Assembly: GCA_015233115.1 (NCBI GenBank)
Contig: JADFYJ010000014.1
Location: 11,028 to 75,027 of the forward strand
Direction: 5' to 3'
Source: Candidatus Omnitrophota bacterium
GTDB taxonomy: Bacteria > Omnitrophota > Gorgyraeia > Zapsychrales > Zapsychraceae
Length of the DNA: 64,000 bases
Below the pieces are notes generated by a model that saw nothing but the letters and a program-made list of their open reading frames with translations, made no database searches and had not been told where the DNA came from. The position numbers were made by a program, and so were the translations under genes. Below, piece by piece: positions 5,419-58,611 of this stretch (the first letter of the stretch is position 1; each line of letters begins with the position of its first letter).

Positions 5419-8220
5419 ATGACTGAAAAAAATAGAATTATTACTATTAGCTTCTGCGACCACTTTATAGAACGGTTGGCTGATCTAATCGTCGAACGGT
5501 ATAAACACTGCGGCTCTGATCTGCGCCGGGTGGCTGTCGTATTCGGAGGCAGGCGGCCGGCTTTGTTTTTGAAGGAGGCTTTGGCGAAGAGATTTAAGGG
5601 GAATTATTTCCCGCCTGCGGTGATTAAGATTGATGATTTGATGAAGGTTATCGTTGAGCAAAATAGTGTTTATGCTCCGGTTCAGGATATGGATGGCGCG
5701 TATTTGCTGTATCAGCTGGTTCAGCAGCATGCCCCGGAATTTTTAAGTCAGCGGCCGACTTTCGCGGAATTTTTACCGTGGGCGAAAGAAATTTCCGCGT
5801 TTATTGATCAACTGGATTTAGAAAATATTGATGATAAGAATTTAATGGATGTGAGCCTAAACGCGGAAATTGGGTTTGATGTACCGGAAGATATTAACGC
5901 GTTATTAAAATATTTAGGTGTGTTGCGCCAAAAATATCATGAAGCATTAAATGAGAAAAAATTATATTCGCGCGGAATGTTGTATCAAAAGGCGGCAGCC
6001 GACGCAGGCAGCGTAAAATTATCCCAATGGGATGAAATTATTTTTGCTAATTTCTTTTATTTGAATGCTTCGGAATTGAAGGTATCCCAAACTTTATGTG
6101 ATAACAAAAAAGCGTTAATGGTTTTTCAAGGTGACAGCCGCAAATGGCCGGTCTTGGAAAAATTGTCCGGGCAATTAAACGCTTCAATTGTCGAAGGCAA
6201 AGCAGTCGATGAGCCAAAATTTGAGCTTAAAATTTATGAAGCTTTTGATGCGCATTCGCAGGTTGGGTTTGTACGGAAGATTTTGAGCCAGACCAAAAAT
6301 TTAGAACGCACAGTCGTGGTTTTGCCTCAGCCGGACCACTTTATTCCTTTATTATCCGAAGTCGCTGGTTCAATCAAAGATTTTAATATTTCCCTCGGCT
6401 ATCCTTTAAAACGCAGTAGTTTATTTTCTTTGTTTGAAAATATATGTGAATGCCAGCTGTCCATGCAGGACGGCAGGTATCACGCGAAAGATTATTTAAA
6501 AGTCCTCATGCATCCGTTTGTGAAAAATTTGTCTTTGTCCCAGGGCCCGGCCGCAAACCGGATTATGGTGCATAAAATTGAAGAAGTGTTAACCGGCCAG
6601 ATTCCGACGGATATTTCCGGAAAATTATTTCTTACTCCTAAAGAAATTTTAGGCACGGAACAAATTTTTGACAGCGCCAGCCGCATGAACGCGAATCAAG
6701 GCGAGGTGAGCCTGGTTCAAGGATTGAAAAATGATTTGAGGCTGATTCATGAGCTGTTTATCGATGGTTGGAGTGATATAAAAACTTTTTATGATTTCGC
6801 GCTGAAAATCAGAACCGTGCTGGACGCGTTAACGGAAAAAAGTTTTCTTAAAAATTATCCGTTAAATATTAATATTGTTAACCGGTTGTATGAACTGACT
6901 GAGCAGTTTTTAAAGGCTGATTTTAACCGCGAAGAATTTTTGATCGAAGAAATTTTTAAAATATTTTATTCCAGCGTGGAACACGAAATCGTGGCATTTT
7001 TAGGGTCACCTTTAAAAGGCCTGCAGATTTTGGGTTTGTTTGAAACCCGTTCGCTGAATTTCGACCAAGTGATTGTCATGGATGCCAATGAAGGCACTTT
7101 ACCCCGTCTGGATTTGCGTTCCAATCTTATTCCCCGGGAAGTGATGTTAGGGTTGAAATTTGACCGGCTCAATATGGAAGAAGAGATACAGCGTTATCAG
7201 TTTATGCGTTTAATATCGTCCGCGAAACAGGTGCATGTGATTTATCAGCACAATAACGGCCATGAGCGCAGCCGTTTTGTGGAAGAGCTGATCTGGGAAG
7301 ATCAGAAAAAACATAAAAAGCTTGAAGCTTTGCCTGTGGTTAAAGGCGCGTTTACGGTTTGTGCGACGCGGGAAATTAAGCGCGTGAAAAAGACCAAGGA
7401 CGTTATCGCTTATTTAAAGGATTTCAAGTTTTCTTCATCCAGCATTAACACGTATTTGAGAAACCCCCTGGATTTTTATTATCAGTATGTTTTGGGCTTG
7501 CGTGAAAAAGAAGACCTGTTGGATGAAGTGGAAGCCAAAGAAATTGGAATTTATTTTCATTCTCTGCTGGAAGAAACCTTTAAGCCTTTTATCGGAAAAA
7601 CTCCGGTGATTGACCGCGCGTTTATGGAAACGTTTCAAAGGATCGCTGAGGAAAAATTCGAGGACCATTTCGGTAAAGCTGGCAGGTCAGCAAATTTTCT
7701 TTTAAAAACAGTCGTGGATGAGCGGATCAAACGGTTTTTAGAGAATGAGCGGTTGTCAGAGGACCGGCAGATTAAACAAATATTATTTTTAGAACAGCGT
7801 TTTACGCATGAAGTTCAACTTCCAGGGGGGAAAGTTCATCTGAATTATGTTTTTGACCGTATTGACGAAATGGCGGACGGCTCAATTATGATTTTGGATT
7901 ATAAATCCGGCGGGACAGATAAAATGCCTAAATCGATTGAGAATATGCGGGATTTGAGTTTTTCTCGTAAAGCCTTGAAAGATAACGTGCGTTCATTCCA
8001 GCTGCCATTGTATTTTTATTATCTGACCCAAAAATATCCGGGGCGCAAATTGAATGCGGCACTATACAGTTTACGCACCATGAAAAATTTTTACTTTATT
8101 ACAGACAAAATGGCGGATTTTTCTTATGATGACATTAATAAATTTTACCTGCAAGCATTAGATTTTGTGATCACCGAGATTCGTAACCCTCATGTGGAGT
8201 TTGAAGAAGATGTGGAATAA
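5419..8220 (+). CDS. AddB-like partner protein with C-terminal PD-(D/E)xK nuclease motif, no intact Walker A
   Basis: 933 aa, directly downstream of helicase-nuclease; C-terminal FDRIDEMADGSIMILDYKSGG (RecB-family nuclease motif); N-terminus lacks GxGKT. Confidence 0.5.
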   Translation: MTEKNRIITISFCDHFIERLADLIVERYKHCGSDLRRVAVVFGGRRPALFLKEALAKRFKGNYFPPAVIKIDDLMKVIVEQNSVYAPVQDMDGAYLLYQLVQQHAPEFLSQRPTFAEFLPWAKEISAFIDQLDLENIDDKNLMDVSLNAEIGFDVPEDINALLKYLGVLRQKYHEALNEKKLYSRGMLYQKAAADAGSVKLSQWDEIIFANFFYLNASELKVSQTLCDNKKALMVFQGDSRKWPVLEKLSGQLNASIVEGKAVDEPKFELKIYEAFDAHSQVGFVRKILSQTKNLERTVVVLPQPDHFIPLLSEVAGSIKDFNISLGYPLKRSSLFSLFENICECQLSMQDGRYHAKDYLKVLMHPFVKNLSLSQGPAANRIMVHKIEEVLTGQIPTDISGKLFLTPKEILGTEQIFDSASRMNANQGEVSLVQGLKNDLRLIHELFIDGWSDIKTFYDFALKIRTVLDALTEKSFLKNYPLNINIVNRLYELTEQFLKADFNREEFLIEEIFKIFYSSVEHEIVAFLGSPLKGLQILGLFETRSLNFDQVIVMDANEGTLPRLDLRSNLIPREVMLGLKFDRLNMEEEIQRYQFMRLISSAKQVHVIYQHNNGHERSRFVEELIWEDQKKHKKLEALPVVKGAFTVCATREIKRVKKTKDVIAYLKDFKFSSSSINTYLRNPLDFYYQYVLGLREKEDLLDEVEAKEIGIYFHSLLEETFKPFIGKTPVIDRAFMETFQRIAEEKFEDHFGKAGRSANFLLKTVVDERIKRFLENERLSEDRQIKQILFLEQRFTHEVQLPGGKVHLNYVFDRIDEMADGSIMILDYKSGGTDKMPKSIENMRDLSFSRKALKDNVRSFQLPLYFYYLTQKYPGRKLNAALYSLRTMKNFYFITDKMADFSYDDINKFYLQALDFVITEIRNPHVEFEEDVE

Positions 8221-10219
8221 TCCTAAATTGCGGTTCGTCTGTCAGATATTATTATTAGTTATTGTCGGTGTTTTAATCTATTCCAACAGTTTGCATTCAG
8301 ATTTTGTTTTTGACGATAAAATTTTTGTGGCGGGCAATCCTAATCTTCACAAGTTAACTGATTTTAAAGCGCTATGGCATTCTCAGCCAGGGTCATCACG
8401 CATTGTCGCTGTCATCAGTTTCGCGTTAAACTATCATTTCACAAAATTGAATGTGGTTGGATTTCATGCGACGAATTTGGTGTTCCATTTGATCAATGGT
8501 TTTCTCGTCTGGTGGCTCATTTGTCTGCTGTTTGAAACACCGGTATTAAAACGCCACCGGTTTTATGAATCTCGAAATGTTATCGCCTGGATCTGCGCGT
8601 TATTATTTGTTGTACATCCGTTACAAACTCAGGCCGTCGCTTATATTACACAAAGATTCGCGTCATTGGCTACTTTATTTTATGTGTTAGGTATGTGCTG
8701 GTATTTAGTGGGCCGCTTGAGCGGTCGAAAACGGTTTTATGTATTGGCGTGTGGCAGTACTGCTTTGAGCATGCTGACTAAAGAAATGGCCATGACTTTT
8801 CCTTTAATGGTCATCATGACGGAATGGGTGCTTTTTGAACATCAGCGGGTAGAATGGCGTAAAATGCTTTTTGGGGGCGCTGCATTATTAGGATTAGGGA
8901 TGATTGTTCCTGCGGTGATGAGGTTTAATATTTTTGCGGCTTTGTTTGACCCCAAGCCAGGGAATTCACATCTTTGGGATACGGTGATGTTTGAACCCTT
9001 TGTGATGACGCAGCTAAAAGTATGGGTAGTATTATTGGCAAAATTATTTGTTCCGATACACCAGAATTTGGATTATGATTTTCCATTAGTTAATAATTTT
9101 TGGCAAATGGATATTTGGGGCAGCGCCGTTATATTGATAGCGCTGCTCGTTTTCGCGGTGAAATACCGGCAGAAAAGCCCTTTAGTCAGTTATGGAATTT
9201 TTTGGTTTTTTGTGGCGATGAGTGTTGAGATGATCCCGCGTATGTATGTGATTTTCGAACATAAAATGTATCTGCCCATGGCAGGCTTAAGTATGGCCCT
9301 TGTCGGATTAAGCTGGGAATGGATTAAAAATAATAAAGCGCGTGGGATAGTTCTGGCTGGGGTTATTATTTTGTTTGGCGTTTTAAGCTATCATCGGAAT
9401 TTTGTCTGGAAAGATGAAGTGTCCTTATGGGGTGATGTGGTCAAACATTCTCCTAACAAGCCAACAGCGAATTACAATTTAGGGTGCGCGTATCAGGAAA
9501 AGGGCATGTTGGATAAGGCCTTATATTATTTTAATAGAACCGCAGCTCTTTCACGGTATGAATACAGCGCGCTGGTTAACCGGTCTATGGTGAGAGAACA
9601 ATTGGGCGATTCAGACGGCGCATTGGATGATTTGAACCGGGTACTCTTGATGAAAAATGATCAATTTGAGGCCTACAATAACCGGGGCACACTTTACGGG
9701 AAGCGTCAGGAATATGGCAAGGCGGTCATGGATTTGAGCAAGGCGTTATACCTTCGTCCTGAGTCCGCGGAAACGTATTATAACCGGGGGTCAGCTTTTC
9801 AAGTTTTGAATAAACTTCCTGAAGCGTTAAATGATTTTACGAAATCCATTCAGTTGAAACCGGATTATTCCCGGGCGTATATAAGCCGGGGGATTGTTAA
9901 TATGATGTTAGGCCGCGATGCTGAAGCTGGCCAAGATTTTACCACAGCCATAGAATTAGAGCCTTATTTTCCGAATTCGTACATGAACCGGGGGATTTTA
10001 GAAATGAAGCTGGGATATGCCAAACAGGCAGGCATGGATTTGAGCCGGGCGGTGGCCCTTAATCCCAATCTGGGAATGGCTCGGTATGATTTATTTCTTA
10101 TTTTTAAGTCTGTCGGTTTAAATGACAAAGCTGCTGAGCAGGCCAAGTATATTATCGAGCATAATCTTGACGTTGATGCGCGGTCAAAAGCAGAGATACA
10201 AAAATTTTTTATGAAGTAA
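8192..10219 (+). CDS. TMTC/PMT-like polytopic membrane protein (DUF1736-type) with C-terminal TPR repeats, paralog 1
   Basis: N-terminal multi-TM region with FHATNLVFHLINGFLVWWL motif typical of TMTC-like GT-C proteins; C-terminal repeated A..Y.NRG.. TPR-like units. Confidence 0.55.
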   Translation: MWSLKKMWNNPKLRFVCQILLLVIVGVLIYSNSLHSDFVFDDKIFVAGNPNLHKLTDFKALWHSQPGSSRIVAVISFALNYHFTKLNVVGFHATNLVFHLINGFLVWWLICLLFETPVLKRHRFYESRNVIAWICALLFVVHPLQTQAVAYITQRFASLATLFYVLGMCWYLVGRLSGRKRFYVLACGSTALSMLTKEMAMTFPLMVIMTEWVLFEHQRVEWRKMLFGGAALLGLGMIVPAVMRFNIFAALFDPKPGNSHLWDTVMFEPFVMTQLKVWVVLLAKLFVPIHQNLDYDFPLVNNFWQMDIWGSAVILIALLVFAVKYRQKSPLVSYGIFWFFVAMSVEMIPRMYVIFEHKMYLPMAGLSMALVGLSWEWIKNNKARGIVLAGVIILFGVLSYHRNFVWKDEVSLWGDVVKHSPNKPTANYNLGCAYQEKGMLDKALYYFNRTAALSRYEYSALVNRSMVREQLGDSDGALDDLNRVLLMKNDQFEAYNNRGTLYGKRQEYGKAVMDLSKALYLRPESAETYYNRGSAFQVLNKLPEALNDFTKSIQLKPDYSRAYISRGIVNMMLGRDAEAGQDFTTAIELEPYFPNSYMNRGILEMKLGYAKQAGMDLSRAVALNPNLGMARYDLFLIFKSVGLNDKAAEQAKYIIEHNLDVDARSKAEIQKFFMK

Positions 10220-47569: not shown

Positions 47570-48655
47570 ATGTTTATGTTGAAAAAAATTAAAGTGGTGA
47601 TCGCGGATGATTCGGCGTTTTTTCGACAGGTTCTGAAAACTGTTTTGGAAGAATCCAGGAAGATCGTGGTCGTTGCCGCGGCGAAGAATGGGAAAGAAGC
47701 GGTTGAATTTGTCAAAACTCTTAACCCGGATATTTTGATTTTGGATTGTGATATGCCGGTGATGAATGGTTTGGATGCTTTAAAGCGGGTCATGGATGAG
47801 AACCCCTTACCGGTTTTGATGTTTAGCGCGTTAACACAGGAAGGGGCGAAAGAGACGTTGACCGCTTTATCATTGGGGGCTGTGGATTTTTTGCTCAAAC
47901 CCGCGGGGCATGCCCATGCGCTAGATGAAGTCGCGGAAGAATTGATCAAAAAAATTGAAACAATTGTCCGCCAGGCCAAATGGCGGGTTTCTCTTCCTTC
48001 GGTCAACCGGCCGAAGCTGTCCAATGGGGTTGAAACAGAAAATGTTCAGGTTCAAGACCGCCGGCCGGCTGTGGAGTTGAGGCGAAGAACAGTCGATTTG
48101 ATTGCTATGGGATCATCAACCGGCGGAGTGCAGGCGTCAACGAGAGTATTGATGGCTTTGCCAGAAAATACGGCCCCGATTGTATGGGTTCAGCATATGC
48201 CTCCGGAATTTACCAAAAATTTTGCTGAACGGTTAAATGGGTTGTGTCAAATGGAAGTGAAAGAGGCCAAAGATGGAGACCTGGTGAAGCGGGGAATTTG
48301 TTATCTGGCGCCAGGCGGATTTCAGATGCGCTTGTTAAAAAAAGGTAATGATTATTGTGTGAGTGTTAAATTAGGTGAAAAAGTTTCCGGTCAATGCCCG
48401 TCTTGTAATGTCTTGTTTGATTCGGCGGCAGAATATTTTGGTGACAATGCGCTGGGGATTATATTAACGGGCATGGGAGACGACGGAGCCTCTGGCTTAG
48501 CCAAAATGCACCAAAAAGGCGCATATGTGATCGGCCAGAATGAAAAATCCTGTGTGGTTTACGGGATGCCTAAAGCCGCGTATAATTTAGGCGCGGTGGA
48601 TATTGAACTGGATATTCAAGAAATTTCGGATGCCATTATTAAAGCCGGAGGTTGA
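47570..48655 (+). CDS. cheB: Chemotaxis methylesterase/deamidase CheB
   Basis: N-terminal REC (VVIADDSAFFRQ...ILDCDMPVMNG) plus methylesterase domain (IAMGSSTGG; GMGDDGASG). Confidence 0.9.
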   Translation: MFMLKKIKVVIADDSAFFRQVLKTVLEESRKIVVVAAAKNGKEAVEFVKTLNPDILILDCDMPVMNGLDALKRVMDENPLPVLMFSALTQEGAKETLTALSLGAVDFLLKPAGHAHALDEVAEELIKKIETIVRQAKWRVSLPSVNRPKLSNGVETENVQVQDRRPAVELRRRTVDLIAMGSSTGGVQASTRVLMALPENTAPIVWVQHMPPEFTKNFAERLNGLCQMEVKEAKDGDLVKRGICYLAPGGFQMRLLKKGNDYCVSVKLGEKVSGQCPSCNVLFDSAAEYFGDNALGIILTGMGDDGASGLAKMHQKGAYVIGQNEKSCVVYGMPKAAYNLGAVDIELDIQEISDAIIKAGG

Positions 48656-48656
48656 G

Positions 48657-49082
48657 ATGATAAGAAATATTATCTTAGTCGTGGATGATGAAGAGCATAT
48701 GGTGAGCTTGTTGAAACAAGCTTTGGCGGATGATCATACGGAAGTGATTGGTGCTTCTGATGGACAAGAAGCTTTGGATTTGGTATCGAACCGGCATGTG
48801 GATTTGATCATTGCGGATAACAATATGCCTAAAATTCTGGGAGAAAATCTTTTTTTAGAAATTAAAAAAATGGATCCATTTGTTCAGCTGATCATGATTA
48901 CGGGATATCCGTCAGTCACAGTGATTGTTAAGATGCTGGAAGCGGGAGTATCAGATTTTTTAATCAAGCCTTTTGATCTAAATCAGATTCAATTGGTGGT
49001 TAAAGAAACATTAGGGAGGATCGAACGCTGGCGCAATTTGCGCAAAGAGTGGATGGCGTATAAGAAAAGAGGAATCGAGTAA
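48657..49082 (+). CDS. Single-domain response regulator (CheY-like receiver)
   Basis: ILVVDDEEHMVSLL...DLIIADNNMP...FLIKPF; ATG at 48657 two nt after the cheB stop. Confidence 0.8.
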   Translation: MIRNIILVVDDEEHMVSLLKQALADDHTEVIGASDGQEALDLVSNRHVDLIIADNNMPKILGENLFLEIKKMDPFVQLIMITGYPSVTVIVKMLEAGVSDFLIKPFDLNQIQLVVKETLGRIERWRNLRKEWMAYKKRGIE

Positions 49083-49140
49083 CCGAGTGACAGAGCAAAA
49101 ATGTTGATGGATAAAAGAAAAATTATATTAAGGGAGAATT

Positions 49141-50097
49141 ATGGGCAGCGAAAATAATGAATTGATAGGAGAGTTTATCGCGGAGAGTGAGGAATACTTG
49201 GCCGTTTTAAACCAGAAATTGCTCAAGGCTGAAGATGCCATTAAATCCGGCGTGGATATGTCTGCGGAAGAATTAAACGCTATGTTCCGTTCTGTGCATA
49301 CGATTAAAGGGACAGCCTCCTTTTTTGATTTGCAAAAGATCGTTCATTTAACGCATGATATGGAAGCCGTTTTATCCCGGATAAAAAAATTTGAAATGAA
49401 ATTGACGGCGCCTATCATAGATGTATTATTCGGTGCTTTTGATACATTACAAAAATTGGTCACGAATTTAAAAGAACAGGGCTCATTGGATTCAGTGGAT
49501 ATTAAAAAAAATATTCAGGAAATCGCGTTGATCTTAGATGAAAAGCCTGTTGAACCAAGTATTAAAGGGACTCAGCCGAGTTTGGGTTCGAATCAACCGG
49601 TTCTCCCTGTTGTTGCGGCAGGGACAGTTATCCCGGCGGCCGTTTCTATTCCGCCCGCCGCGGTTCAGGTCCCCAAAGGAGAACAGGATTTTGGGGTCAT
49701 GGAGATCAATGATAGATTTATGGAAGCTTTTGTTTCGGATATCGAAGATAATGTTGAGAATTTTAATAATGATCTGATCAAGCTGGAACAAACTGGGAAT
49801 CTCGATTTGGTCGGGAATTTGTTTCGTTATGCTCATACTGTAAAAGGTTCGTCCGGCGTCGTTAATTGTCAGCCTATGACAGAGGTGTCCCATAAGATGG
49901 AAAGCATTTTGTCAGTTTTTCGCGAGCAGAAAAAAACTATTGATACAGATACGGTCACTTTGCTTTTAGATGGAATTGATACGGTTAAATTTATTTTAAA
50001 TGCAATTAAAAAACAGACTCATCTGGTTTTAGATTTGCAGGCCATTACCGATAAATTAGATCAGCAATACAAGAAATTGATCAACCCTGGAATTTGA
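49141..50097 (+). CDS. cheA: CheA N-terminal fragment: two tandem HPt (P1) domains
   Basis: Two HPt signatures, FRSVHTIKGTASFF and FRYAHTVKGSSGVV, separated by a Pro/Val-rich linker; no kinase domain. Confidence 0.75.
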   Translation: MGSENNELIGEFIAESEEYLAVLNQKLLKAEDAIKSGVDMSAEELNAMFRSVHTIKGTASFFDLQKIVHLTHDMEAVLSRIKKFEMKLTAPIIDVLFGAFDTLQKLVTNLKEQGSLDSVDIKKNIQEIALILDEKPVEPSIKGTQPSLGSNQPVLPVVAAGTVIPAAVSIPPAAVQVPKGEQDFGVMEINDRFMEAFVSDIEDNVENFNNDLIKLEQTGNLDLVGNLFRYAHTVKGSSGVVNCQPMTEVSHKMESILSVFREQKKTIDTDTVTLLLDGIDTVKFILNAIKKQTHLVLDLQAITDKLDQQYKKLINPGI

Positions 50098-50121
50098 GTG
50101 TGCTGGAAGGAGTCACTGAAT

Positions 50122-51519
50122 ATGAATGAATCTGCCCCAATATCTGCGGCGCACAATACGGGAAAATCCGCTCCAGTGGAAGTTTCAACATTACGGATTG
50201 ATTCCCGAAAATTGGATTTATTGATGAATATGTCTGGAGAGTTGGTCACCTTACGCGCACAATTTTCTCGTTTAGTGGCATTATTCAGAAATGAGCTGAT
50301 GACCTACAAGGAAATGACTAAGGCTTTGGAAGAATTGAAAGATTCATCGCTGCAAATGGTGTCCAGCAAATTGGATGTCGAACGACGAAAAAAGAGCGAA
50401 GAACAGTTTGTACGGTTGATAGGAAATGTCGAGCAATATAAAAATGAGCTTAATTTTACGGCTCAAGTGCATTCGTTTGATGAGCTGACCGGGATGCTGG
50501 GCAAATTAGCTTCTGATATTCAGTCGGGTATTATGCAAACGCGTATGATTCCAGTGGAATGGGTTTTTACCCGCTTCAAACGGGTCATCCGGGACATGGC
50601 TAAAGAGTTAAATAAAAATGTTGATTTGAAAGTAGAAGGCGAAGATACGGAATTGGATAAAAAAATTGTGGATTGTTTAGCTGATCCACTTACGCATATG
50701 ATCCGAAATGCCATGGACCATGGAATTGATGATAAAGAAACCCGGCTTAAGTTGGGCAAACCGGAAATAGGAACTGTTTTTTTAAAAGCCGCTAACCGGG
50801 GTAACACCATTTTTATAGAAGTCGGAGATGATGGACGGGGTATTGATCCGGAACGGTTGGTTAAAAAAGCAATTGAAAAAGGAATTATCAATCAAGAACA
50901 GGCCCAGCGGATGAGTGAAAAAGAGAAATTACATTTGATGTTTTTACCGGGTTTTAGCACTGCAGAAGCGGTGACGGCTATTTCTGGACGCGGTGTGGGG
51001 CTGGATGTCGTGACGAATATGCTTAATGCCGTTAATGGGACTATTGATATTGAAACAAAAATTGATATGGGGTCTAAGTTTATTTTAAAAATACCTTTAA
51101 CGTTAGCTATTATTCAAGCGTTATTGATTAAGATCAATGAACAGGTATTTGCGGTTCCTATTGAGGCAGTCATTGAGATTATTAAAGTGAGTACGGGGGA
51201 TATATATTCCATTGAAGGAAATGATACTGTGAAATTGCGCGGGCACGCTTTAAGTTTAGTCAGTTTAGAGCAGGTCATCAAGATACAGGGATGTTCAGAA
51301 AAAAATGGAGATGGTTTAAAAACAGTCGTAGTCATTGGTGATAAAGAAAATCGCATCGGGGTGTTAGTGGACAGTCTGATTGGCGAAGATGAAATTGTCA
51401 TTAAACCTTTATCAGAACACTTCAGTCATGTTAAAGGCGTGAGCGGGGCATCCATTTTAGGGGATGGAAATGTGGTGTTGATCTTAGACCCAAATGCCAT
51501 AATCAGCGAAGCGCAATAG
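50122..51519 (+). CDS. cheA: CheA C-terminal fragment: dimerization (P3), HATPase (P4) and CheW-like (P5) domains
   Basis: STLRIDSRKLDLLMNMSGELV (P3); HMIRNAMDHGID N-box; GRGVGLDVV G2 box; C-terminal CheW-like domain; AAGGAG RBS then ATG 50122 directly after the upstream stop. Confidence 0.8.
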   Translation: MNESAPISAAHNTGKSAPVEVSTLRIDSRKLDLLMNMSGELVTLRAQFSRLVALFRNELMTYKEMTKALEELKDSSLQMVSSKLDVERRKKSEEQFVRLIGNVEQYKNELNFTAQVHSFDELTGMLGKLASDIQSGIMQTRMIPVEWVFTRFKRVIRDMAKELNKNVDLKVEGEDTELDKKIVDCLADPLTHMIRNAMDHGIDDKETRLKLGKPEIGTVFLKAANRGNTIFIEVGDDGRGIDPERLVKKAIEKGIINQEQAQRMSEKEKLHLMFLPGFSTAEAVTAISGRGVGLDVVTNMLNAVNGTIDIETKIDMGSKFILKIPLTLAIIQALLIKINEQVFAVPIEAVIEIIKVSTGDIYSIEGNDTVKLRGHALSLVSLEQVIKIQGCSEKNGDGLKTVVVIGDKENRIGVLVDSLIGEDEIVIKPLSEHFSHVKGVSGASILGDGNVVLILDPNAIISEAQ

Positions 51520-51536
51520 CAGCGGAAAAGGCAGCA

Positions 51537-52025
51537 ATGAATGAAATGATTTTGATCCAGGTTGGAGTAGCTGATATCAAAGTCAGCAAAGCTCCGGCTA
51601 TGCTGATGACGAACTTAGGCTCATGCATTGCGGTATGTTTATATTATGAGCAAGGGCAGATCGGAGGCATGCTGCATTTGATGATGCCCCGCGCGGACGA
51701 AAAAGCTTTGGAATACCGGGGCTTTAAAAAAGAAAAATATGCGAATACTGGCATCCGTGAATTGGTGTATCAAATCAAACAGCAGTTTAGAGTTGACCAT
51801 TCGATGCTGACCGCCAAAATTTTTGGCGGCGGCCGTATTCTTCAAAATGTTTCCTTGGATATTGGGGCGGATAATGCCAAGGCGGCGCAGGACATTCTCC
51901 GGGAATTAGGAATCCGCATCATAGCATCTAAAGTTGGCGGGACCAAAGGGTATAATATTAGGTTTGATCTGTCGACGGGAAAAGTGCGTTGTCAGATTTT
52001 TGGCGAACAAGAACAGGAGTTTTAA
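51537..52025 (+). CDS. cheD: Chemoreceptor glutamine deamidase CheD
   Basis: IKVSKAPAMLMTNLGSCIAVCLY...GGMLHLMMP matches the CheD core with catalytic Cys. Confidence 0.8.
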   Translation: MNEMILIQVGVADIKVSKAPAMLMTNLGSCIAVCLYYEQGQIGGMLHLMMPRADEKALEYRGFKKEKYANTGIRELVYQIKQQFRVDHSMLTAKIFGGGRILQNVSLDIGADNAKAAQDILRELGIRIIASKVGGTKGYNIRFDLSTGKVRCQIFGEQEQEF

Positions 52026-52026
52026 C

Positions 52027-52635
52027 ATGGTTCATTCTAATAAAACCATCAACGCAATACAAATGATTGCTCGTTTAATTATTGATGAAGCATCCCGGGC
52101 TTTCTCAAAAATGATCAGGCAAGGCGTGAGCATTGAAATGCAAAACGCGTATTTTGATGATATTTCCAATGTGACAGCCAAGATTTGCAATGAATACAAT
52201 GAATACAAGGGAAGCGTAGGGGCCATCGTCGATTTGACAGGAGATGTTAAATTAAAATTTTTGTTTATGACGGATTTGAGTACAGCTCAGATTTTAACTG
52301 ACCTGTTACTGCGCCGCCAGACTGGTACAACCAAAGAATATGACATAAATGTTGAGAGTACGGTGCAGGAAATTGGGAATGTTCTTTCCTGTATTGTGGC
52401 GAATATGTTGGTCAATGATTTTCAAATTTCAATGACGCCGAGTGTACCGGTGGTTTTGCGGGATTTTGCCGGGACAATTTTTGCGGAATTTATCAGAGAT
52501 GTCGCTGACGAACGGCAGGAAGCGTTAGTCGTGGAGAGTAGATTTCTTCTTTCCAATCAGAAAATGAAGTGTCACATGTTTATTATGCCGGTTGGTGAAA
52601 GTGAGCAGATACTGCAGTATTTAACTTTTTCTTAA
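52027..52635 (+). CDS. CheC-like phosphatase (CheC/CheX/FliY family)
   Basis: Follows cheD (the classical cheC-cheD pairing is inverted here); EIGNVLSCIVANML resembles the CheC E-x2-N-x3-G...A motif. Confidence 0.4.
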   Translation: MVHSNKTINAIQMIARLIIDEASRAFSKMIRQGVSIEMQNAYFDDISNVTAKICNEYNEYKGSVGAIVDLTGDVKLKFLFMTDLSTAQILTDLLLRRQTGTTKEYDINVESTVQEIGNVLSCIVANMLVNDFQISMTPSVPVVLRDFAGTIFAEFIRDVADERQEALVVESRFLLSNQKMKCHMFIMPVGESEQILQYLTFS

Positions 52636-52650
52636 ACGTAAAGGACATTT

Positions 52651-53019
52651 ATGGGTAAAAAAATTATGGTGGTGGATGACGCCGCTGTTATTCGGCTTAT
52701 GTTGAAAGATATTTTGGAATCCCATCAATTTGAAGTGGTAGGAGAATGTAGTAACGGGCAAGATGCCATTGAAAAATTTAAGGCGTTGAAGCCGGATATT
52801 GTTACCATGGATATAATTATGCCGAATATGGACGGCGTTCAGGCGCTTGAGGAAATTTTGAAATTTGATAAGAATGCCAAAGTTATAATGGTCACAGCTC
52901 TTGATCAGCGGGAATTTCTTATGAAAGCTATCCGTTTGGGAGCCGCGGATTTTATTGTTAAGCCATTTGAAGATGCCCGGGTCATCGCGGCGATTCAAAG
53001 AGTTGCGAGACAAATATAA
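52651..53019 (+). CDS. cheY: Chemotaxis response regulator CheY
   Basis: KIMVVDDAAVIRLML...DIVTMDIIMPNMDG...KVIMVTA...IVKPF. Confidence 0.9.
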   Translation: MGKKIMVVDDAAVIRLMLKDILESHQFEVVGECSNGQDAIEKFKALKPDIVTMDIIMPNMDGVQALEEILKFDKNAKVIMVTALDQREFLMKAIRLGAADFIVKPFEDARVIAAIQRVARQI

Positions 53020-53024
53020 TTTTG

Positions 53025-53075
53025 AAAAGACACAAGTCACATGTCACATGTCACATGTTACAAGTTACCTGTGAC
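53025..53075. repeat. GTCACAT heptamer tandem array between cheY and hybrid kinase
   Basis: gtcacatgtcacatgtcacatgttacaagttacctgtgacac. Confidence 0.7.
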
Positions 53076-54231
53076 ACAACAAAGGTTACATATTTTGCCT
53101 GCCATATTGATCGTTGATGATTCAGAAGTGGAATGCGCCCTTTTAAAAGGGATATTGCATAAATCGTTTTCTGCATACGAAGTGTTAATTGCCCATCATG
53201 GCCGGGAAGGCCTGGAGCTGTTGGCGCAGAGAGACGTTGATATTGTCTTGTCTGATATGATGATGCCGGTTATGAATGGCTGGGAGTTTTGTGAAATTAT
53301 AAAAAAAGATCCCCGAACCAAAGATGTTCCAGTCCTTTTATTTTCTTCTTTAGAGCAGGTCCAGGAAAAAGCCAAAGGTTTTGAAGCGGGCGCGGCCGAT
53401 TATATTGTCAAACCAATCGAATCCGGTGAAGTCATCGCACGCATTAAAGTCCATTTAGGGCTTAAACATTATCAGGATCAATTGAAAGACCTTAACCGAG
53501 AGTTAAAAGAAGCTCAAGACGCTCTGGTGCAAAGTGAAAAAATGTCAGCGGTCGGAACTTTGGCGGCAGGGATTTCTCATGAATTTAATAATGTTTTGGC
53601 GATGATGAAAGGTTATATCCAGTTATCCCAGCAAAAGAATAAACTAGACGACGTGAAACCTGCCCTTGCGGTCATGCTGGACTTGGTCGAACGGGGGCAA
53701 TTTTTAGTAAGATCTATGCTGGATTTTTCCAAAGGCGGGATGTCGGAAAACAAGCAAAAAATAGTTTTAGCACAGATAATCGATAAAGTCAGGGTGCTTA
53801 TGGAACCCATGTTTAAGGCGCAGGGTGTTCAGGTTGAGCTTCAGGGTAAATCCTCGTGTGAGTTGCAAGGTTATCCTAATCAATTGTCTCAAGCGATTAT
53901 TAATTTTGCCAAGAATGGGATTGAAGCCTGTGAAGGCCGTACGGAGAAAAAAATTACCATTGAATTCGGTAAATCTTTGTTCGATAGGGTGGAGTGCGCG
54001 TATATCCGGGTCATTGATACCGGCGCCGGAATCCCTGAATCAATTCGGAAATGTATTTTTGATCCTTTTGTGACCACCAAAGGTGTTATCGCCGGAGGCA
54101 ATCGTTCCACGGCTGGCACGGGGTTGGGTTTAACTGTTTCGTATAATATTATCAAAAAACACCACGGTGAAGTCAAAATCGAAAAGACCGGCTCTGCAGG
54201 AACGACGATGCTAGTTACTATACCTCTATAA
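53041..54231 (+). CDS. Hybrid receiver-histidine kinase (REC-HisKA-HATPase)
   Basis: N-terminal REC (ILIVDDSEVE...VLSDMMMPVMNG), H-box ISHEFNNVLAMM, G-boxes (IDTGAGI; GTGLGLTVS). Confidence 0.8.
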   Translation: MSHVTCYKLPVTQQRLHILPAILIVDDSEVECALLKGILHKSFSAYEVLIAHHGREGLELLAQRDVDIVLSDMMMPVMNGWEFCEIIKKDPRTKDVPVLLFSSLEQVQEKAKGFEAGAADYIVKPIESGEVIARIKVHLGLKHYQDQLKDLNRELKEAQDALVQSEKMSAVGTLAAGISHEFNNVLAMMKGYIQLSQQKNKLDDVKPALAVMLDLVERGQFLVRSMLDFSKGGMSENKQKIVLAQIIDKVRVLMEPMFKAQGVQVELQGKSSCELQGYPNQLSQAIINFAKNGIEACEGRTEKKITIEFGKSLFDRVECAYIRVIDTGAGIPESIRKCIFDPFVTTKGVIAGGNRSTAGTGLGLTVSYNIIKKHHGEVKIEKTGSAGTTMLVTIPL

Positions 54232-54321
54232 TTTTCCTTCCCAAATATTCTAAATTATGTTAATGTACAAAATAAGAAAAATGTGAAATAACGGTAGGGC
54301 GGAATCATTACAAAGGCAGAT

Positions 54322-54531
54322 ATGGAAAAGAAAAGATTAAGCGACCTTTTACACGATCTTAGTCAGCCGCTTTGCGCCTCAGTCATCAATCTTAAAGTTT
54401 TAGCTTCCTTTTTGGAAAAAGACAAGTTAGATCTTCCGGAAATAAAAAATATAGTTGCCGACGTAGAACGCGAACAAAATCGCGCTGTCGAGATATTAAA
54501 CACCCTACGGACCACCATTAAGGAGATTTGA
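54322..54531 (+). CDS. Stand-alone HisKA_3-like dimerization/phosphoacceptor mini-protein
   Basis: 69 aa; RLSDLLHDLSQPL resembles the HisKA_3 H-box (R.IARELHDslGQ.L) of NarX/DesK-type kinases; length equals one HisKA_3 domain; no ATPase domain. Confidence 0.4.
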   Translation: MEKKRLSDLLHDLSQPLCASVINLKVLASFLEKDKLDLPEIKNIVADVEREQNRAVEILNTLRTTIKEI

Positions 54532-55148
54532 ATATGGACAATAAATTTTTCGTCATTTATGTCGTGGATGATGATACCGCGATGTTGAAATCACTGGAAC
54601 GGGTGTTTGTGGGGAAAGGATATCGAGTAGAGGTTTTCGTGTCTGCTAAAGATTTTTTGTCTAAAGGAAAATACCATCAGCCTGCCTGCATTTTATTGGA
54701 TCTGCGTATGCCGGAGTTAAGCGGGCTGGAGCTTCAACAGCATCTTTTAACCCGAGGAGTTTTATTGCCGATTATTTTTATTTCCGGCCAGGGCGATGTT
54801 CCCAGCAGTGTGAAAGCCATGAAAGGCGGGGCTATTGATTTTATTGTAAAACCTTTTGACATGGATGAATTATTATCTACCGTTGAGCGGGCGCTGGCGT
54901 TATCAGTGAAAACTCAAAAAGAACAGGCAGAAAAAAATAAACTGCGGGTTTTGTTGGATAAAATGACTCAACGGGAAAAACAAGTTTTTCATCTAGTGGT
55001 TAAAGGGATGCTGAATAAACAAATTGCTGCGGCTTTAGGGATCAGTGAAAAAACTGTCAAAGTACACCGGGGAAGATTTATGGAAAAATTGGATGTTAAT
55101 TCTGTAGCCGAATTAGTAAAACTCGCAGGCAAAGCGGCTAATCTCTAA
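54528..55148 (+). CDS. NarL/FixJ-family response regulator (REC + LuxR-type HTH)
   Basis: REC (FVIYVVDDDTAML...ILLDLRMPELSG) and C-terminal LTQREKQVFHLVVKGMLNKQIAAALGISEKTVKVHR. Confidence 0.9.
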   Translation: MNMDNKFFVIYVVDDDTAMLKSLERVFVGKGYRVEVFVSAKDFLSKGKYHQPACILLDLRMPELSGLELQQHLLTRGVLLPIIFISGQGDVPSSVKAMKGGAIDFIVKPFDMDELLSTVERALALSVKTQKEQAEKNKLRVLLDKMTQREKQVFHLVVKGMLNKQIAAALGISEKTVKVHRGRFMEKLDVNSVAELVKLAGKAANL

Positions 55149-55225
55149 TGTAAAGGTTAGGTCGCAGGTCACAAAGAGTAGCAAAGATTATAAAAAAACA
55201 TGAAATATATCACGATAGGATAAAT

Positions 55226-55798
55226 ATGAAAGCAAGACCTTTAACCACGGGTGAAATGGCGCATTATTGTCATGTGACATACCGGACTGTTTTAAAATGG
55301 ATCGAAGATGGTAAATTGAAAGCTTATCGGACGCCAGGGAAACACAGCCGGGTAGCGGCTGAAGAATTTGTCCGTTTTTTGCGTGATTATCAAATGCCGA
55401 TTCCTGAAGAATTCCGGTCGTTGGCAGAATCAAAAAAAATTTTAGTGGTTGATGATGACAAAAATATGATCAAATCATTACAACGTTTATTGAAAAATGC
55501 CGGATACAATGAAATTGAAGCGGCATTTGATGGTTTTGAAGCTGGTCGGAAATTTTTTGAATTCGAACCGCATTTGGTGCTATTGGATATCCGGATGCCT
55601 GGGATTGATGGTTATCATGTTGTAGAACATATTAAAAAATCGCCACATGGGCATTTGGCCAAGATTATCGCGATTTCTGCGTTTTTTGAAGAAGATAAAA
55701 AAGCCGCGTTGTTCAAACAAGGAGTCAATTTTTGTTTTGACAAACCATTTGATCCCAAGGATCTTGTGGAAAAGGTCAAAAGTCTCCTTGGAGACTAG
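55226..55798 (+). CDS. Response regulator with N-terminal excisionase/MerR-type HTH and C-terminal receiver domain
   Basis: LTTGEMAHYCHVTYRTVLKWIEDGKLKAYRTPGKHSRV (HTH_17-like) then ILVVDDDKNMIKSL...VLLDIRMPGIDG. Confidence 0.7.
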   Translation: MKARPLTTGEMAHYCHVTYRTVLKWIEDGKLKAYRTPGKHSRVAAEEFVRFLRDYQMPIPEEFRSLAESKKILVVDDDKNMIKSLQRLLKNAGYNEIEAAFDGFEAGRKFFEFEPHLVLLDIRMPGIDGYHVVEHIKKSPHGHLAKIIAISAFFEEDKKAALFKQGVNFCFDKPFDPKDLVEKVKSLLGD

Positions 55799-55812
55799 GA
55801 GAAAAAGATCTT

Positions 55813-58611
55813 ATGCTTTTTATCATAAGGCGAGGGGTTCGCCGGTACTTTCTAACCTGGTTTTTCATTATGGTTTGGCAAATTTTCTCCGGGGGGGACG
55901 CCCAAGCTGAGACGGCTTCTTCGGCGAGTTGCAGTCGTATCGGAGTTGTTACAGAGCAGGATGCCCTGGATGCCAAACAGCATTGGATTCCTACGGTTGA
56001 TTATTTGAACCAAAATATTAAAGATTATTGTTTTGAATTAAAAATATTTGACCCGCAATATGCTTTAACCGCAGTGAAGGAAAAAGAAGCGGATTTTTTT
56101 GTTATGAGTCCCGTCGTATTTTCCGAGATTGGACATCTTGTTCCCCTTGAAAGTTATTTAACCATGGAACGCACGCAGGGCGGCTTTATATATCCCCTGA
56201 ATGGTGCTGTAGTGTTTACCCGTTCCGATCATCAATATTTAAATTATTTCCGGGATTTGCGTGATAACCGGGCGATTGTACTGAAAACAGAGGGGATGCA
56301 AGGAGAATTAGCTTTTCTGCGTGAACTCACTGATCTGCATATGAATCCTGCTGGGAAATTTAAACAATACACGTCAACGGCCAATTATAAAGAAATATGT
56401 TCTGCTGTCTTGCGGGGTGAATATGATATTGGTGTTTCAGCGACGGGTGATTTGGAGCAGTGTGTCGTAGAGAAATTATTGAAATGGAAGGATGTCAAAG
56501 TTTTGGAGCCGTATCAGGGGTTCCGGATGGGGAACAATTATAATGTACCTTTCCGATATAGCACAAGGTTATATGCGGATTGGGTTTTTGTTTCAGTCGA
56601 GCATCTCCCTTCACTTTTAATCCGCGATACGGTTGGCGCTTTATTGAATGTTCCGGAAAATGCTCCAGCGGCCCTATCAGCCGGTTATGCTGGATGGCTG
56701 CCTGATTTAAGTTATCAAGATGTTCATGATGCGTTGCAGAATTTAAAGCGGGGGCCGCGTAATTGGGTGGATATTCAAAATGCTTTTATGCTGATTTGGA
56801 AGTTTTATAGATGGGGAATTATCAGTGTGTTGTGTTTTTTAATTTTTTTAATCGGGGCGTTATTATATTTGATGGTCAAGAATATTGGCTTATACCGCGT
56901 TAAACAGGACCTGGCGCGAAAGCTAGTTTCACAAAAAAACATTGAGGACGGAGCCCAGGAAACAGAAGCCAAAATCGATGCAATATTAAACGCCATCCCG
57001 TATGCGGTCATTGGTTTTGAAAATGATGTTATTATTTTTGCCAATGGCGCGGTTAAAAAAATGTTTGGCAGGGATCCGGAAAGTTTGATAGGTAAAACAG
57101 CGGAAATATTATATTCAGGGGCGAATTATATCAATGTTTTGGAGGAAATTTATGGAACGTTAAAAAATGAGCAAACGTTATCTAAAGAGCTTAGGGCGAT
57201 CCGTAAAAATGGAGAAAAATTTGATTGTTTAGTCAGTGTGGCTCAGCTGAAAAATGATAAATCACAACACCGGTTCGTGGGAGTTTTCGTGGATGTCACG
57301 GAACGGTACAACCGAGAAGAGTTGTTAAGGAAATTGTCAAAGGCGATCCAACAAAATCCTGCTGGAGTTATTATCGCTTCACCTGCAGGGAGGATTGAAT
57401 ATGTCAATGACCGATTTCTGCAGATTTCCGGTTGGGATCGGAATTCCGTATTGAACGTTAATATTCAGAAATTAATTGTTGATTTATTGATGGATGGGAA
57501 AAGTACAGATTTCTGGAAAATGGTTGTAAATGGCCAGCTCACCCAGAAAGAATTTTTTAGCCGGCGAAAAAATGCTGAACTGTATTGGGGCATGTTTACG
57601 GTTTCTCCATTAAAAGATAATGAGGGAGGGATAACTCATTTTGTTTTCAATTGGGAAGATATTTCAGAACGTAAAAAAACTGAAGAAAAATTTAAGGTGA
57701 GTCAACAAGAATTAGAACGCGCGAATAAAAATTTAGTCGAAAATGAAAAAACTTTAAAAAATATGATTCAGGATTTGGAGGCGACCCATCGGCAATTAAA
57801 GACGATGCAGGCGCAGTTAATCCAAACCGAAAAATTATCATCTATTGGTCAATTGGCGGCTGGCATTGCTCACGAAATTAATAACCCGGTGGCATTTATT
57901 ACCAGCAATATTAATGCGTTGGAACGATATTTGGTTAGTTTTAAAAAAATATTTTATATTTTAAAAGAATTGGAAAATAGCGCGGGTGGAGAAGACAGCA
58001 GAATGGCGCGGGATATTTTCAAAAAATTGGAAAGGGTGACCGAAGAAGAAGATATTAATTTTATTCTTAAGGATATTGACGCAGTGATCGCGGAATCGAA
58101 AGAAGGTTTGGAGCGCATCAAAAATATTGTTCTGGATATGAAGACCTTTTCCCGCCGGGATGATTTGTCCCGGATGCCGGCGGATATCAACCATATTTTG
58201 GACGGAGTGATCAATATTGTTTGGAATGAAATTAAATATAAAGCTAAATTAGTAAAAAATTTTCAGCCTCTGCCTTTAATTAATTGCAATCCCCAGCAGA
58301 TAGGGCAGGTTTTTATGAATCTTTTGATCAACGCCGTTCAAGCCATTGATGAACAAGGACAGATTACGGTTTCGACATACCTAAAAAATAATTTTGCGGT
58401 GGTTGAGATCGCGGATACCGGAAGGGGTATTCCGGCGGATGTGCGGGGTAATATTTTTGAGCCATTTTACACGACAAAAAAAACCGGAGAAAGTACCGGA
58501 TTAGGATTAAGTATCAGTTTGGAAATTATTAACCGGCATCAAGGAAAAATTGATCTGGAAAGTGAGATAGGAAAAGGGACAACTTTTATAGTTCGTTTGC
58601 CGGTTGTGTGA
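55813..58611 (+). CDS. Sensor histidine kinase with periplasmic solute-binding-like domain, PAS domains, HisKA and HATPase
   Basis: Signal/TM, periplasmic PhnD-like domain, TM (ISVLCFLIFLIGALLYLMV), PAS regions, H-box IAHEINNPVAFI, G-boxes (IADTGRGI; GLGLSIS). Confidence 0.8.
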   Translation: MLFIIRRGVRRYFLTWFFIMVWQIFSGGDAQAETASSASCSRIGVVTEQDALDAKQHWIPTVDYLNQNIKDYCFELKIFDPQYALTAVKEKEADFFVMSPVVFSEIGHLVPLESYLTMERTQGGFIYPLNGAVVFTRSDHQYLNYFRDLRDNRAIVLKTEGMQGELAFLRELTDLHMNPAGKFKQYTSTANYKEICSAVLRGEYDIGVSATGDLEQCVVEKLLKWKDVKVLEPYQGFRMGNNYNVPFRYSTRLYADWVFVSVEHLPSLLIRDTVGALLNVPENAPAALSAGYAGWLPDLSYQDVHDALQNLKRGPRNWVDIQNAFMLIWKFYRWGIISVLCFLIFLIGALLYLMVKNIGLYRVKQDLARKLVSQKNIEDGAQETEAKIDAILNAIPYAVIGFENDVIIFANGAVKKMFGRDPESLIGKTAEILYSGANYINVLEEIYGTLKNEQTLSKELRAIRKNGEKFDCLVSVAQLKNDKSQHRFVGVFVDVTERYNREELLRKLSKAIQQNPAGVIIASPAGRIEYVNDRFLQISGWDRNSVLNVNIQKLIVDLLMDGKSTDFWKMVVNGQLTQKEFFSRRKNAELYWGMFTVSPLKDNEGGITHFVFNWEDISERKKTEEKFKVSQQELERANKNLVENEKTLKNMIQDLEATHRQLKTMQAQLIQTEKLSSIGQLAAGIAHEINNPVAFITSNINALERYLVSFKKIFYILKELENSAGGEDSRMARDIFKKLERVTEEEDINFILKDIDAVIAESKEGLERIKNIVLDMKTFSRRDDLSRMPADINHILDGVINIVWNEIKYKAKLVKNFQPLPLINCNPQQIGQVFMNLLINAVQAIDEQGQITVSTYLKNNFAVVEIADTGRGIPADVRGNIFEPFYTTKKTGESTGLGLSISLEIINRHQGKIDLESEIGKGTTFIVRLPVV

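Follow-up and report, generated by a model that had tools for sequence, protein, structure and literature searches.

A small conserved gene encoding a stand-alone DHp domain of the FixL subtype precedes a FixJ-type response regulator in Candidatus Omnitrophota

Among the described two-component systems, FixL-FixJ is one of the nearest counterparts of the gene considered here, a small open reading frame (ORF) contained in a stretch of 64,000 nucleotides from a Candidatus Omnitrophota bacterium (assembly GCA_015233115.1, contig JADFYJ010000014.1, positions 11,028 to 75,027; the whole stretch is called the window below). Like FixL, its product carries an H-box of the form H-[ED]-[LI]-x-Q-P-L and can be aligned over the full length of the phosphoacceptor (DHp) domain, and the next gene downstream codes for a regulator formed by a receiver domain (REC) and a GerE domain. 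Unlike FixL, however, the small protein possesses neither the PAS/heme sensor, the hallmark of FixL proper, nor the ATP-binding catalytic domain (HATPase), shows Asp and not Glu after the histidine, and cannot autophosphorylate.

A second term of comparison is domain A of EnvZ (residues 223-289), a laboratory fragment that is likewise a helical hairpin of 67-69 amino acids with a phosphoacceptor histidine. In vitro, domain A reportedly forms a stable dimer, is phosphorylated in trans, transfers the phosphoryl group to OmpR and also dephosphorylates OmpR-P. It is engineered, however, and has T at the fourth position after the histidine (His+4), whereas the small protein is natural and conserved, has Q at His+4 and belongs to another HisKA subtype. 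Kinase-derived, DHp-like proteins acting as phosphate shuttles are also known, namely ChpT in Caulobacter and Brucella, alongside Spo0B in Bacillus. Both have a four-helix bundle, cannot use ATP and shuttle phosphate between two receivers (PMC6136694 for Spo0B). The hairpin and the histidine are present in the small protein too, for which a relay is only proposed here, but the C-terminal catalytic-like alpha/beta domain is absent and the protein is still recognisable as HisKA, which Spo0B and ChpT are not. The Hpt family (PF01627), including Ypd1 and the CheA Hpt domains encoded in the window, resembles our case in the proposed histidine relay between receivers, but it has another fold, a monomeric four-helix bundle, and its profile, which does detect the CheA Hpt domains of the window, gives no match to the small ORF.

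A split-kinase mechanism has reportedly been found for the HK1-HK2-TcrA system of M. tuberculosis. There the two halves, HK1 (Rv0600c, ATP-binding) and HK2 (Rv0601c, bearing the histidine), are encoded next to the regulator (PMC8965865), so that the catalytic half is adjacent, whereas an orphan catalytic domain was not found in our case. Finally, an architecture with HisKA alone is already recognised, since P2CS classes proteins with HisKA and neither HATPase nor receiver as phosphotransfer proteins (PMC2716373), and Galperin et al. described archaeal proteins with HisKA and no HATPase, suggesting phosphoacceptor, phosphotransfer or phosphatase roles (PMC5847659). Our protein shares with these classes a HisKA domain with conserved histidine and the absence of the catalytic domain; the archaeal proteins, however, carry N-terminal PAS/GAF sensors or a receiver, while ours is single-domain and strictly paired with a FixJ-type regulator. 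Literature searches on DHp-only, HisKA-only and stand-alone DHp proteins returned census mentions only, and no experimental work.

The gene, the elements of its product and the signals around it are the following.

54322..54531, + strand: DHp-only gene, a stand-alone HisKA domain of the FixL subtype (ORF, Pfam, hhalign, orthologues, coding signature)
54349..54372, + strand: H-box L-H-D-L-S-Q-P-L (alignments of orthologues and homologues)
54325..54414, + strand: predicted helix alpha1, residues 2-31, which holds His11 (AlphaFold2)
54433..54525, + strand: predicted helix alpha2, residues 38-68 (AlphaFold2; alignment with full-length kinases)
54256..54279, + strand: conserved intergenic element TATGTTAATGTACAAAATAAGAAA, upstream of the DHp-only gene (comparison of the window with locus L001, described below)
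54312..54316, + strand: weak Shine-Dalgarno-like AAAGG, 5 nucleotides ahead of the DHp-only ATG (sequence reading)
54520..54525, + strand: AAGGAG, Shine-Dalgarno sequence of the regulator, within the last DHp-only codons (sequence reading; 8 nucleotides before ATG 54534)
54534..55148, + strand: FixJ-type response regulator, REC and GerE/LuxR helix-turn-helix, the presumed partner (Pfam, NCBIfam)

As read from the ORF, translation starts at ATG 54322 and stops at TGA 54529-54531, on the + strand, and the 69-residue product begins MEKKRLSDLLHDLSQPL (full sequence MEKKRLSDLLHDLSQPLCASVINLKVLASFLEKDKLDLPEIKNIVADVEREQNRAVEILNTLRTTIKEI). Both the ORF list and Pfam agree with the original prediction, made from the letters of the DNA, that this ORF of 69 amino acids lacks a catalytic domain.

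The only Pfam match of the small protein is HisKA (PF00512; E 3.5e-4, 21.0 bits, profile positions 6-58 of 66). The gathering score of this family is 26.9; the window protein and its orthologue P0002 (17.6 bits) remain below it, while the orthologue P0003 (36.8) and the related proteins P0110 (34.1) and P0114 (28.5) are above. The domain had been assigned at first to HisKA_3 (PF07730), and this assignment has to be abandoned, because the profile search returned PF00512 alone, with no HisKA_3 match at E up to 10. The motif register is wrong for HisKA_3 as well: the amide is found at His+4 (H-D-L-S-Q), whereas the DxxxQ of HisKA_3 needs it at His+5, and His+4 agrees with the HisKA motif, H-E/D-x-x-T/N (PMC3510030). 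NCBIfam gave only a meaningless match of 12.5 bits to a kinase model.

Relationship to FixL-type kinases is evident from more sensitive comparisons. A phmmer search of 1.84 billion representatives produced 69 matches at E <= 1e-3 and, leaving aside the protein itself and other short proteins, all of them are DHp regions of proteins of 200-1379 amino acids with the H-box HE[LI]NQPL; the DHp domains of complete kinases are matched at E about 1e-5, with residues 7-67 of the small protein aligned. Comparison with seven FixL-type kinases by hhalign gave 97.9% probability (E 6.5e-13) over residues 6-69. Searching the PDB sequences, the top match of a three-sequence profile was the FixL DHp domain in YF1 (4gcz), a weak one (E 0.09), and single-sequence phmmer obtained chance matches only.

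His11 is encoded by the codon at 54352-54354; it is followed at His+1 by an acidic residue, Asp12, and at His+4 by Gln15 (54364-54366). H11, D12, L13, Q15, P16 and L17 are invariant among the three orthologues, and the H, Q and P of the H-box in 60 homologues, full kinases included. Gln occupies His+4 throughout the FixL subtype, against the T/N given for the HisKA motif (PMC3510030). The AlphaFold2 model, for which the input was a 60-sequence alignment, is a helical hairpin with a mean predicted local distance difference test score (pLDDT) of 96.3. In known kinases alpha1 is the part that docks the regulator. The small protein begins about 10 residues ahead of the histidine and stops at the end of alpha2, that is, at the point where full kinases run on into the linker to the catalytic domain. 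HATPase_c is not present in the polypeptide, which does not qualify as a histidine kinase. The small protein is a stand-alone DHp domain of the FixL/DctB subtype of HisKA, and nothing else. Judging from these comparisons, it is outside HisKA_3 and Hpt and also, in the strict sense, outside Spo0B/ChpT.

Conservation of the ORF in relatives, on which the original prediction had been made to depend, is borne out by two full-length orthologues: P0002 (69 amino acids, 57% identity) in the Omnitrophota metagenome-assembled genome (MAG) GCA_015233195.1, at the locus called here L001, and P0003 (75 amino acids, 43% identity) in a Logan assembly, at locus L002. Both share the ends of the window protein and both are followed, within 1-2 nucleotides, by the start of a FixJ-type REC-GerE regulator. 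A word-indexed single-sequence protein search returned only the query, and the orthologues came to light only with an exhaustive HMMER scan. No paralogue was detected in the window by tblastn and a regular expression of the H-box, a scan of metagenomes with the three-sequence alignment gave 524 pattern matches, none of which was confirmed, and an exact look-up of the 69-residue sequence in the contig index found no record.

We compared the coding sequences of the window and L001. Identity at the three codon positions is 0.64/0.86/0.38, no indels are present and 53/69 residues are positives; the nonsynonymous rate (dN) is 0.33, and that of the two flanking kinases 0.26-0.32. The synonymous rate (dS) is saturated and the dN/dS ratio is therefore not computable, so that dN and the codon-position identities were used in its place. 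The codon-position pattern and the absence of indels show that selection on the protein is purifying and that the ORF is no decaying fragment; the small gene is real and protein-coding.

A ribosome-binding site is present at all three DHp-only loci, and at the position of the AAAGG of the window the L001 orthologue has GGAGGTG. An overlap between the stop of the small gene and the start of the regulator (ATGA at 54528) had been proposed, but bases 54528-54531 read TTGA. A TTG start of the regulator would overlap the stop, and ATG 54534 is the better start; it lies 2 nucleotides past the stop, and the spacing is equally tight at both orthologous loci (1-2 nucleotides). The location of AAGGAG inside the final codons of the DHp-only gene suggests that the small gene and the regulator are translationally coupled. 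Upstream, the element TATGTTAATGTACAAAATAAGAAA is kept in both Omnitrophota MAGs (about 9931-9966 in L001) within an AT-rich spacer that has otherwise diverged, its AATGTA core being present twice in L001, and it may be a promoter, an operator or a regulator-binding site. No sigma-70 consensus promoter or terminator was called at this element, and a promoter/terminator scan of 52500-56000 gave counts equal to the shuffled expectation, with the + strand before the ORF empty.

The position of the small gene also offers an indication of its origin. Genome and metagenome collections, scanned with the regulator as anchor, yielded about 160 loci, and in about 35 of them a full-length FixL-type kinase lies directly upstream, including those with the closest regulators (52-57% identity) and with regulators of other Omnitrophota (45-47%). 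These kinases abut or overlap the start of the regulator and have about 217 residues from the histidine to the C-terminus, about 160 of them after the DHp domain. In the remaining loci no ORF with a FixL-type H-box was recognised upstream, the contig often being too short. When a hidden Markov model (HMM) of the three small proteins was run over all ORFs of all loci, a DHp domain without catalytic domain was found only in L001/L003 (one genome) and L002. The comparison of gene order thus shows the small gene in the slot that in relatives is held by a full-length FixL-type kinase, and for this reason descent from the cognate kinase of the regulator, by loss of the sensor and ATP-binding domains, would be the simplest history. 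The idea of a kinase remnant, put forward in the original prediction, is consequently acceptable as history, given the full kinase in relatives, but not as a description of the present state, in view of purifying selection, of three lineages retaining the gene and of the parallel family described below. Kinases of this type within the phylum differ in their N-terminal part: an Omnitrophota FixL-type kinase of 308 amino acids (L006, 3078-4004) has a coiled-coil before the DHp domain and no PAS, while the kinases of L007, L009 and L021 retain a PAS domain, indicating that sensor loss happens within the phylum.

Two short GC-rich proteins among the phmmer matches, used as queries, revealed a parallel family, with 575 clusters matched at E <= 1e-8. 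Among these clusters the 120 best are without exception HisKA-only proteins of 77-145 amino acids, many of them labelled 'sensor kinase FixL' by the Joint Genome Institute (JGI). H-[ED]-x-x-Q-P is kept in 120/120, the histidine lies 65-94 residues from the C-terminus, and in 86/120 it is preceded by 12 residues. Their contigs reach 97 kb with a GC content of 62-64%, and a REC-GerE regulator is always next, with a GTGA overlap in at least two loci. The loci inspected, together with the kinase that adjoins the family, are these.

L163 2849-3091, L166 6001-6240, L168 6001-6408, L169 6001-6237 and L173 6001-6423: parallel-family loci
L163 3910-7476, - strand: double hybrid kinase of about 1190-1210 amino acids (equivalents in L166, L168, L169 and L173)

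The loci are syntenic; their surroundings comprise adh_short, FAD/NAD-binding reductase, PhoD and WXXGXW genes, and the parallel-family gene is adjoined by a convergent double hybrid kinase (HisKA-HATPase-REC-HisKA-HATPase-REC) and by a CheW-containing (CheW/dCache) protein. The double hybrid kinase has two H-boxes SHELRTPL, at residues 354 and 767, behind a long N-terminal region. No orphan catalytic domain was seen in the five loci. Variants of 122-145 amino acids (P0114, P0178, P0090; L168, L173) start with a hydrophobic helix, AVIQLVLIAALVVQW, followed by RRGRRS, which suggests that they are membrane-anchored, provided that the upstream start has been called correctly. When the regulators are placed in a neighbour-joining tree, those of the Omnitrophota trio cluster together with 82% bootstrap and those of the GC-rich group with 100%, regulators accompanied by full kinases falling between the two clades; deep nodes are weak. 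It is likely that the two DHp-only families arose independently.

Around the small gene the window contains further signalling genes.

53041..54231, + strand: REC-HisKA-HATPase kinase, H-box SHEFNN, of another DHp subtype (Pfam; same position in L001)
55226..55798, + strand: HTH_17-REC regulator, receiver alpha1 DDDKNMIKSLQRLL (Pfam; receiver-domain alignment)
55813..58611, + strand: sensor kinase Phosphonate-bd-PAS-PAS-HisKA-HATPase (Pfam; conserved in L001)
48654..49082, + strand: single-domain receiver protein (Pfam; 69% identical to the 142-amino-acid receiver protein of L001)

Pfam confirms the neighbours as they had been described beforehand, that is, a hybrid REC-HisKA kinase, a REC-LuxR regulator, a REC-HTH regulator and a PAS kinase, and the view of a stand-alone phosphoacceptor domain preceding a LuxR/FixJ-type regulator in a cluster rich in kinases and receivers is supported. 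The whole gene order is conserved in GCA_015233195.1, where it runs REC, REC-kinase, DHp-only, REC-GerE, an extra REC, HTH_17-REC and PAS kinase, and the receiver at 48654..49082 is assigned to the conserved module because its L001 orthologue directly precedes the REC-kinase. The kinase at 53041..54231 is a candidate phosphodonor and the one at 55813..58611 a candidate input kinase of the module; their H-boxes, SHEFNN and AHEINNP, belong to a DHp subtype different from that of the small protein. The regulator itself scores 1.2e-25 with Response_reg and 1.7e-20 with GerE in Pfam, its best NCBIfam model is FixJ (195 bits, under the cut-off of 255), and the receiver residues DD, D, S and K can be read in the receiver alignment. 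With an HMM built from 35 catalytic domains none was found in the small ORF, and no orphan catalytic domain in the 64-kb window or in the 19-kb L001 locus, where the only catalytic domains are those of CheA and of kinases having their own DHp of a different subtype. No Hpt gene is present within the module.

Other observations concern the same neighbourhood. The FixJ-type receiver and that of the HTH_17-REC protein are similar in alpha1, which reads DDDTAMLKSLERVF in the former, and the 31% identity of the two receivers is the highest non-orthologous value for the FixJ-type receiver in the cluster. The two receivers may share a docking partner; the comparison of alpha1 is suggestive at best and was not used as evidence. 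In the window a che cluster (47570-53019) stands between the receiver at 48654 and the REC-kinase, with CheB, REC, a split CheA, ORFs of 162 and 233 amino acids and a CheY-like receiver, whereas in the L001 counterpart (7231-8747) the receiver comes directly before the REC-kinase; the extra receiver of L001, 124 amino acids long, lies between the FixJ-type regulator and HTH_17-REC. The cheA gene (49141-51519, +) is broken by one in-frame TGA at 50095-50097 into an ORF with two Hpt domains (49141-50097) and one, in the same frame and with a GTG start, with H-kinase_dim, HATPase_c and CheW (50098-51519). A sequencing error could account for the break, and so could read-through, recoding or a true split of CheA.

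From the features of the protein and of its locus, it is possible to hypothesize what the small protein does: it probably passes phosphate to its FixJ-type regulator or removes it. The histidine phosphotransfer shuttle of the original prediction is plausible and is the mechanism preferred here. The regulator keeps the active-site residues of its receiver and hence still needs a phosphodonor. The small protein would form a homodimeric four-helix bundle docking on the receiver of the regulator with which it shares a transcript. Having no ATP-binding domain, it cannot phosphorylate itself, and His11 would have to be loaded by another protein; the donor might be a phosphorylated receiver in the REC-rich kinase module next to it, a catalytic domain working in trans being the less likely source. 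His11 would then hand the phosphoryl group on to the Asp of the regulator, as in a minimal phosphotransferase of the Spo0B/ChpT kind, and the same surface could speed the dephosphorylation of the regulator when there is no input, as the isolated domain A of EnvZ does. The whole of this explanation, a dimeric docking module that relays through His11 and possibly also dephosphorylates, we consider a serious candidate whose chances are somewhat short of even. In its favour are the invariant H11, D12 and Q15, the H-box motif kept by all 120 members of the parallel family, the lack of an Hpt gene and of an orphan catalytic domain in the module, its surplus of receiver domains and the double hybrid kinase adjoining the parallel family.

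Several points weigh against it. The receiver of the upstream kinase is N-terminal, and an N-terminal receiver usually marks a regulated kinase and not a relay donor. The contig of L002, 1.9 kb long, shows no kinase. The HisKA score of the window protein (21.0) does not reach the gathering score of the family. Foldseek against the PDB gave generic hairpins (including the kinases 9p6i and 4u7o), none at E <= 0.001, a comparison that is uninformative because a helical hairpin of 69 amino acids is not a discriminating fold. Both Spo0B and ChpT retain a C-terminal catalytic-like domain, and an experimentally shown DHp-only phosphotransferase was not found in our literature searches. Moreover, a protein acting purely as a phosphatase would account equally well for the conserved His, Asp/Glu and Gln.

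A function of this kind, as a dedicated phosphatase or as an insulator, is nearly as good an explanation of the data as the relay, and we regard it as possible although rather unlikely. The DHp dimer would dephosphorylate the regulator with Gln15 positioning the water, and the phosphate would never be passed onward; acetyl phosphate or a different kinase would phosphorylate the regulator, and the part of the small protein would be to set a threshold and suppress cross-talk. The isolated DHp domain of EnvZ reportedly shows phosphatase activity (Zhu 2000, cited in PMC3510030). A second docking partner is not required. The role is also in keeping with L002, whose small gene has no kinase visible close by. 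In HisKA kinases the residue at His+4 (T/N) is needed exclusively for phosphatase activity (PMC3510030), and here that position is always Gln, which it is in the FixL subfamily too; moreover, Galperin et al. raise this role for proteins with HisKA and without HATPase (PMC5847659). However the acidic residue at His+1, which in the tested HisKA proteins is required exclusively for the kinase reaction (PMC3510030), is still invariant, and a pure phosphatase need not retain it. The enzyme would also be sensorless, constitutive and co-translated, without obvious regulation. Furthermore, the histidine is invariant in 123/123 sequences, while the phosphatase activity of EnvZ tolerates some substitutions of its histidine.

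The small protein could also be half of a split kinase, with His11 phosphorylated in trans from ATP by an orphan HATPase or by the catalytic domain of a neighbour. Domains A and B of EnvZ reportedly rebuild a kinase in trans. The histidine is conserved, and so is the acidic residue at His+1, which is needed for the chemistry of autophosphorylation (PMC3510030), and the HK1-HK2-TcrA system (listed in PMC8965865 and PMC3544749) is a precedent. Against this stands the absence of any orphan catalytic domain from the window, the L001 locus and the five parallel-family loci, which leaves the split kinase improbable. We consider equally improbable a decoy or anti-kinase, in which the hairpin would carry out no phosphoryl chemistry and would poison, by heterodimerisation, a full-length FixL-type kinase encoded elsewhere in the genome, or sequester the regulator. 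Inhibition through DHp-DHp heterodimers is known from RetS-GacS, kinase inhibitors made of a small helical hairpin exist (Sda), and a small protein without enzymatic domain would suit such a function. A decoy, however, would not need the invariance of the H-box His, Asp/Glu, Gln and Pro in both families, and it would find in the window neither a paralogue nor a kinase of its own DHp subtype, the neighbours being of the SHEFNN and AHEINNP kinds.

It is very improbable that the ORF arose by chance or that it is what a deleted kinase gene has left behind, without function: the full kinase found here in relatives, the sub-threshold Pfam score and the annotation as a mere hypothetical protein could be read in this way, but the orthologues, at 57% and 43% identity, have preserved its length, start, stop position and H-box, without indels or stops and with third codon positions randomised, dN is close to that of the neighbouring functional genes, a ribosome-binding site stands at three loci and the parallel family has hundreds of 90% clusters.

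Censuses of two-component systems routinely drop or mislabel HisKA-only genes. The remark of the original prediction that DHp-only proteins are rarely annotated is fair, although a P2CS class exists: the small gene itself, locus tag HQL26_08210 of a Candidatus Omnitrophica MAG, is recorded as a 'hypothetical protein', and other members are either hypothetical or mislabelled 'sensor kinase FixL'. If these proteins are active relay or phosphatase modules, maps based on kinases, Hpt proteins and regulators alone miss a connector, and this could help to explain the route from hybrid kinases to regulators in Hpt-poor genomes. As a natural counterpart of the domain A of EnvZ, the small protein would be a very small system for the study of DHp-receiver specificity and for synthetic signalling circuits. 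Should it prove to be a simple phosphatase, it would be a modest addition among the known auxiliary regulators.

A wider reading, doubtful when all its parts are taken jointly, is that naturally encoded DHp-only hairpins constitute, beside Hpt and Spo0B/ChpT, a third class of histidine phosphotransfer proteins in bacteria, and a minimal one. If it is true, the repeated cutting back of cognate kinases to their docking helix would give rise to such hairpins, hybrid or receiver-containing kinases would be wired through them to FixJ-type factors in genomes without a matching Hpt, and the GC-rich family would be a widespread and overlooked relay component now carrying the label 'sensor kinase FixL'. 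The apparently repeated reduction of a cognate kinase to its docking helix is an example of pathway remodelling.

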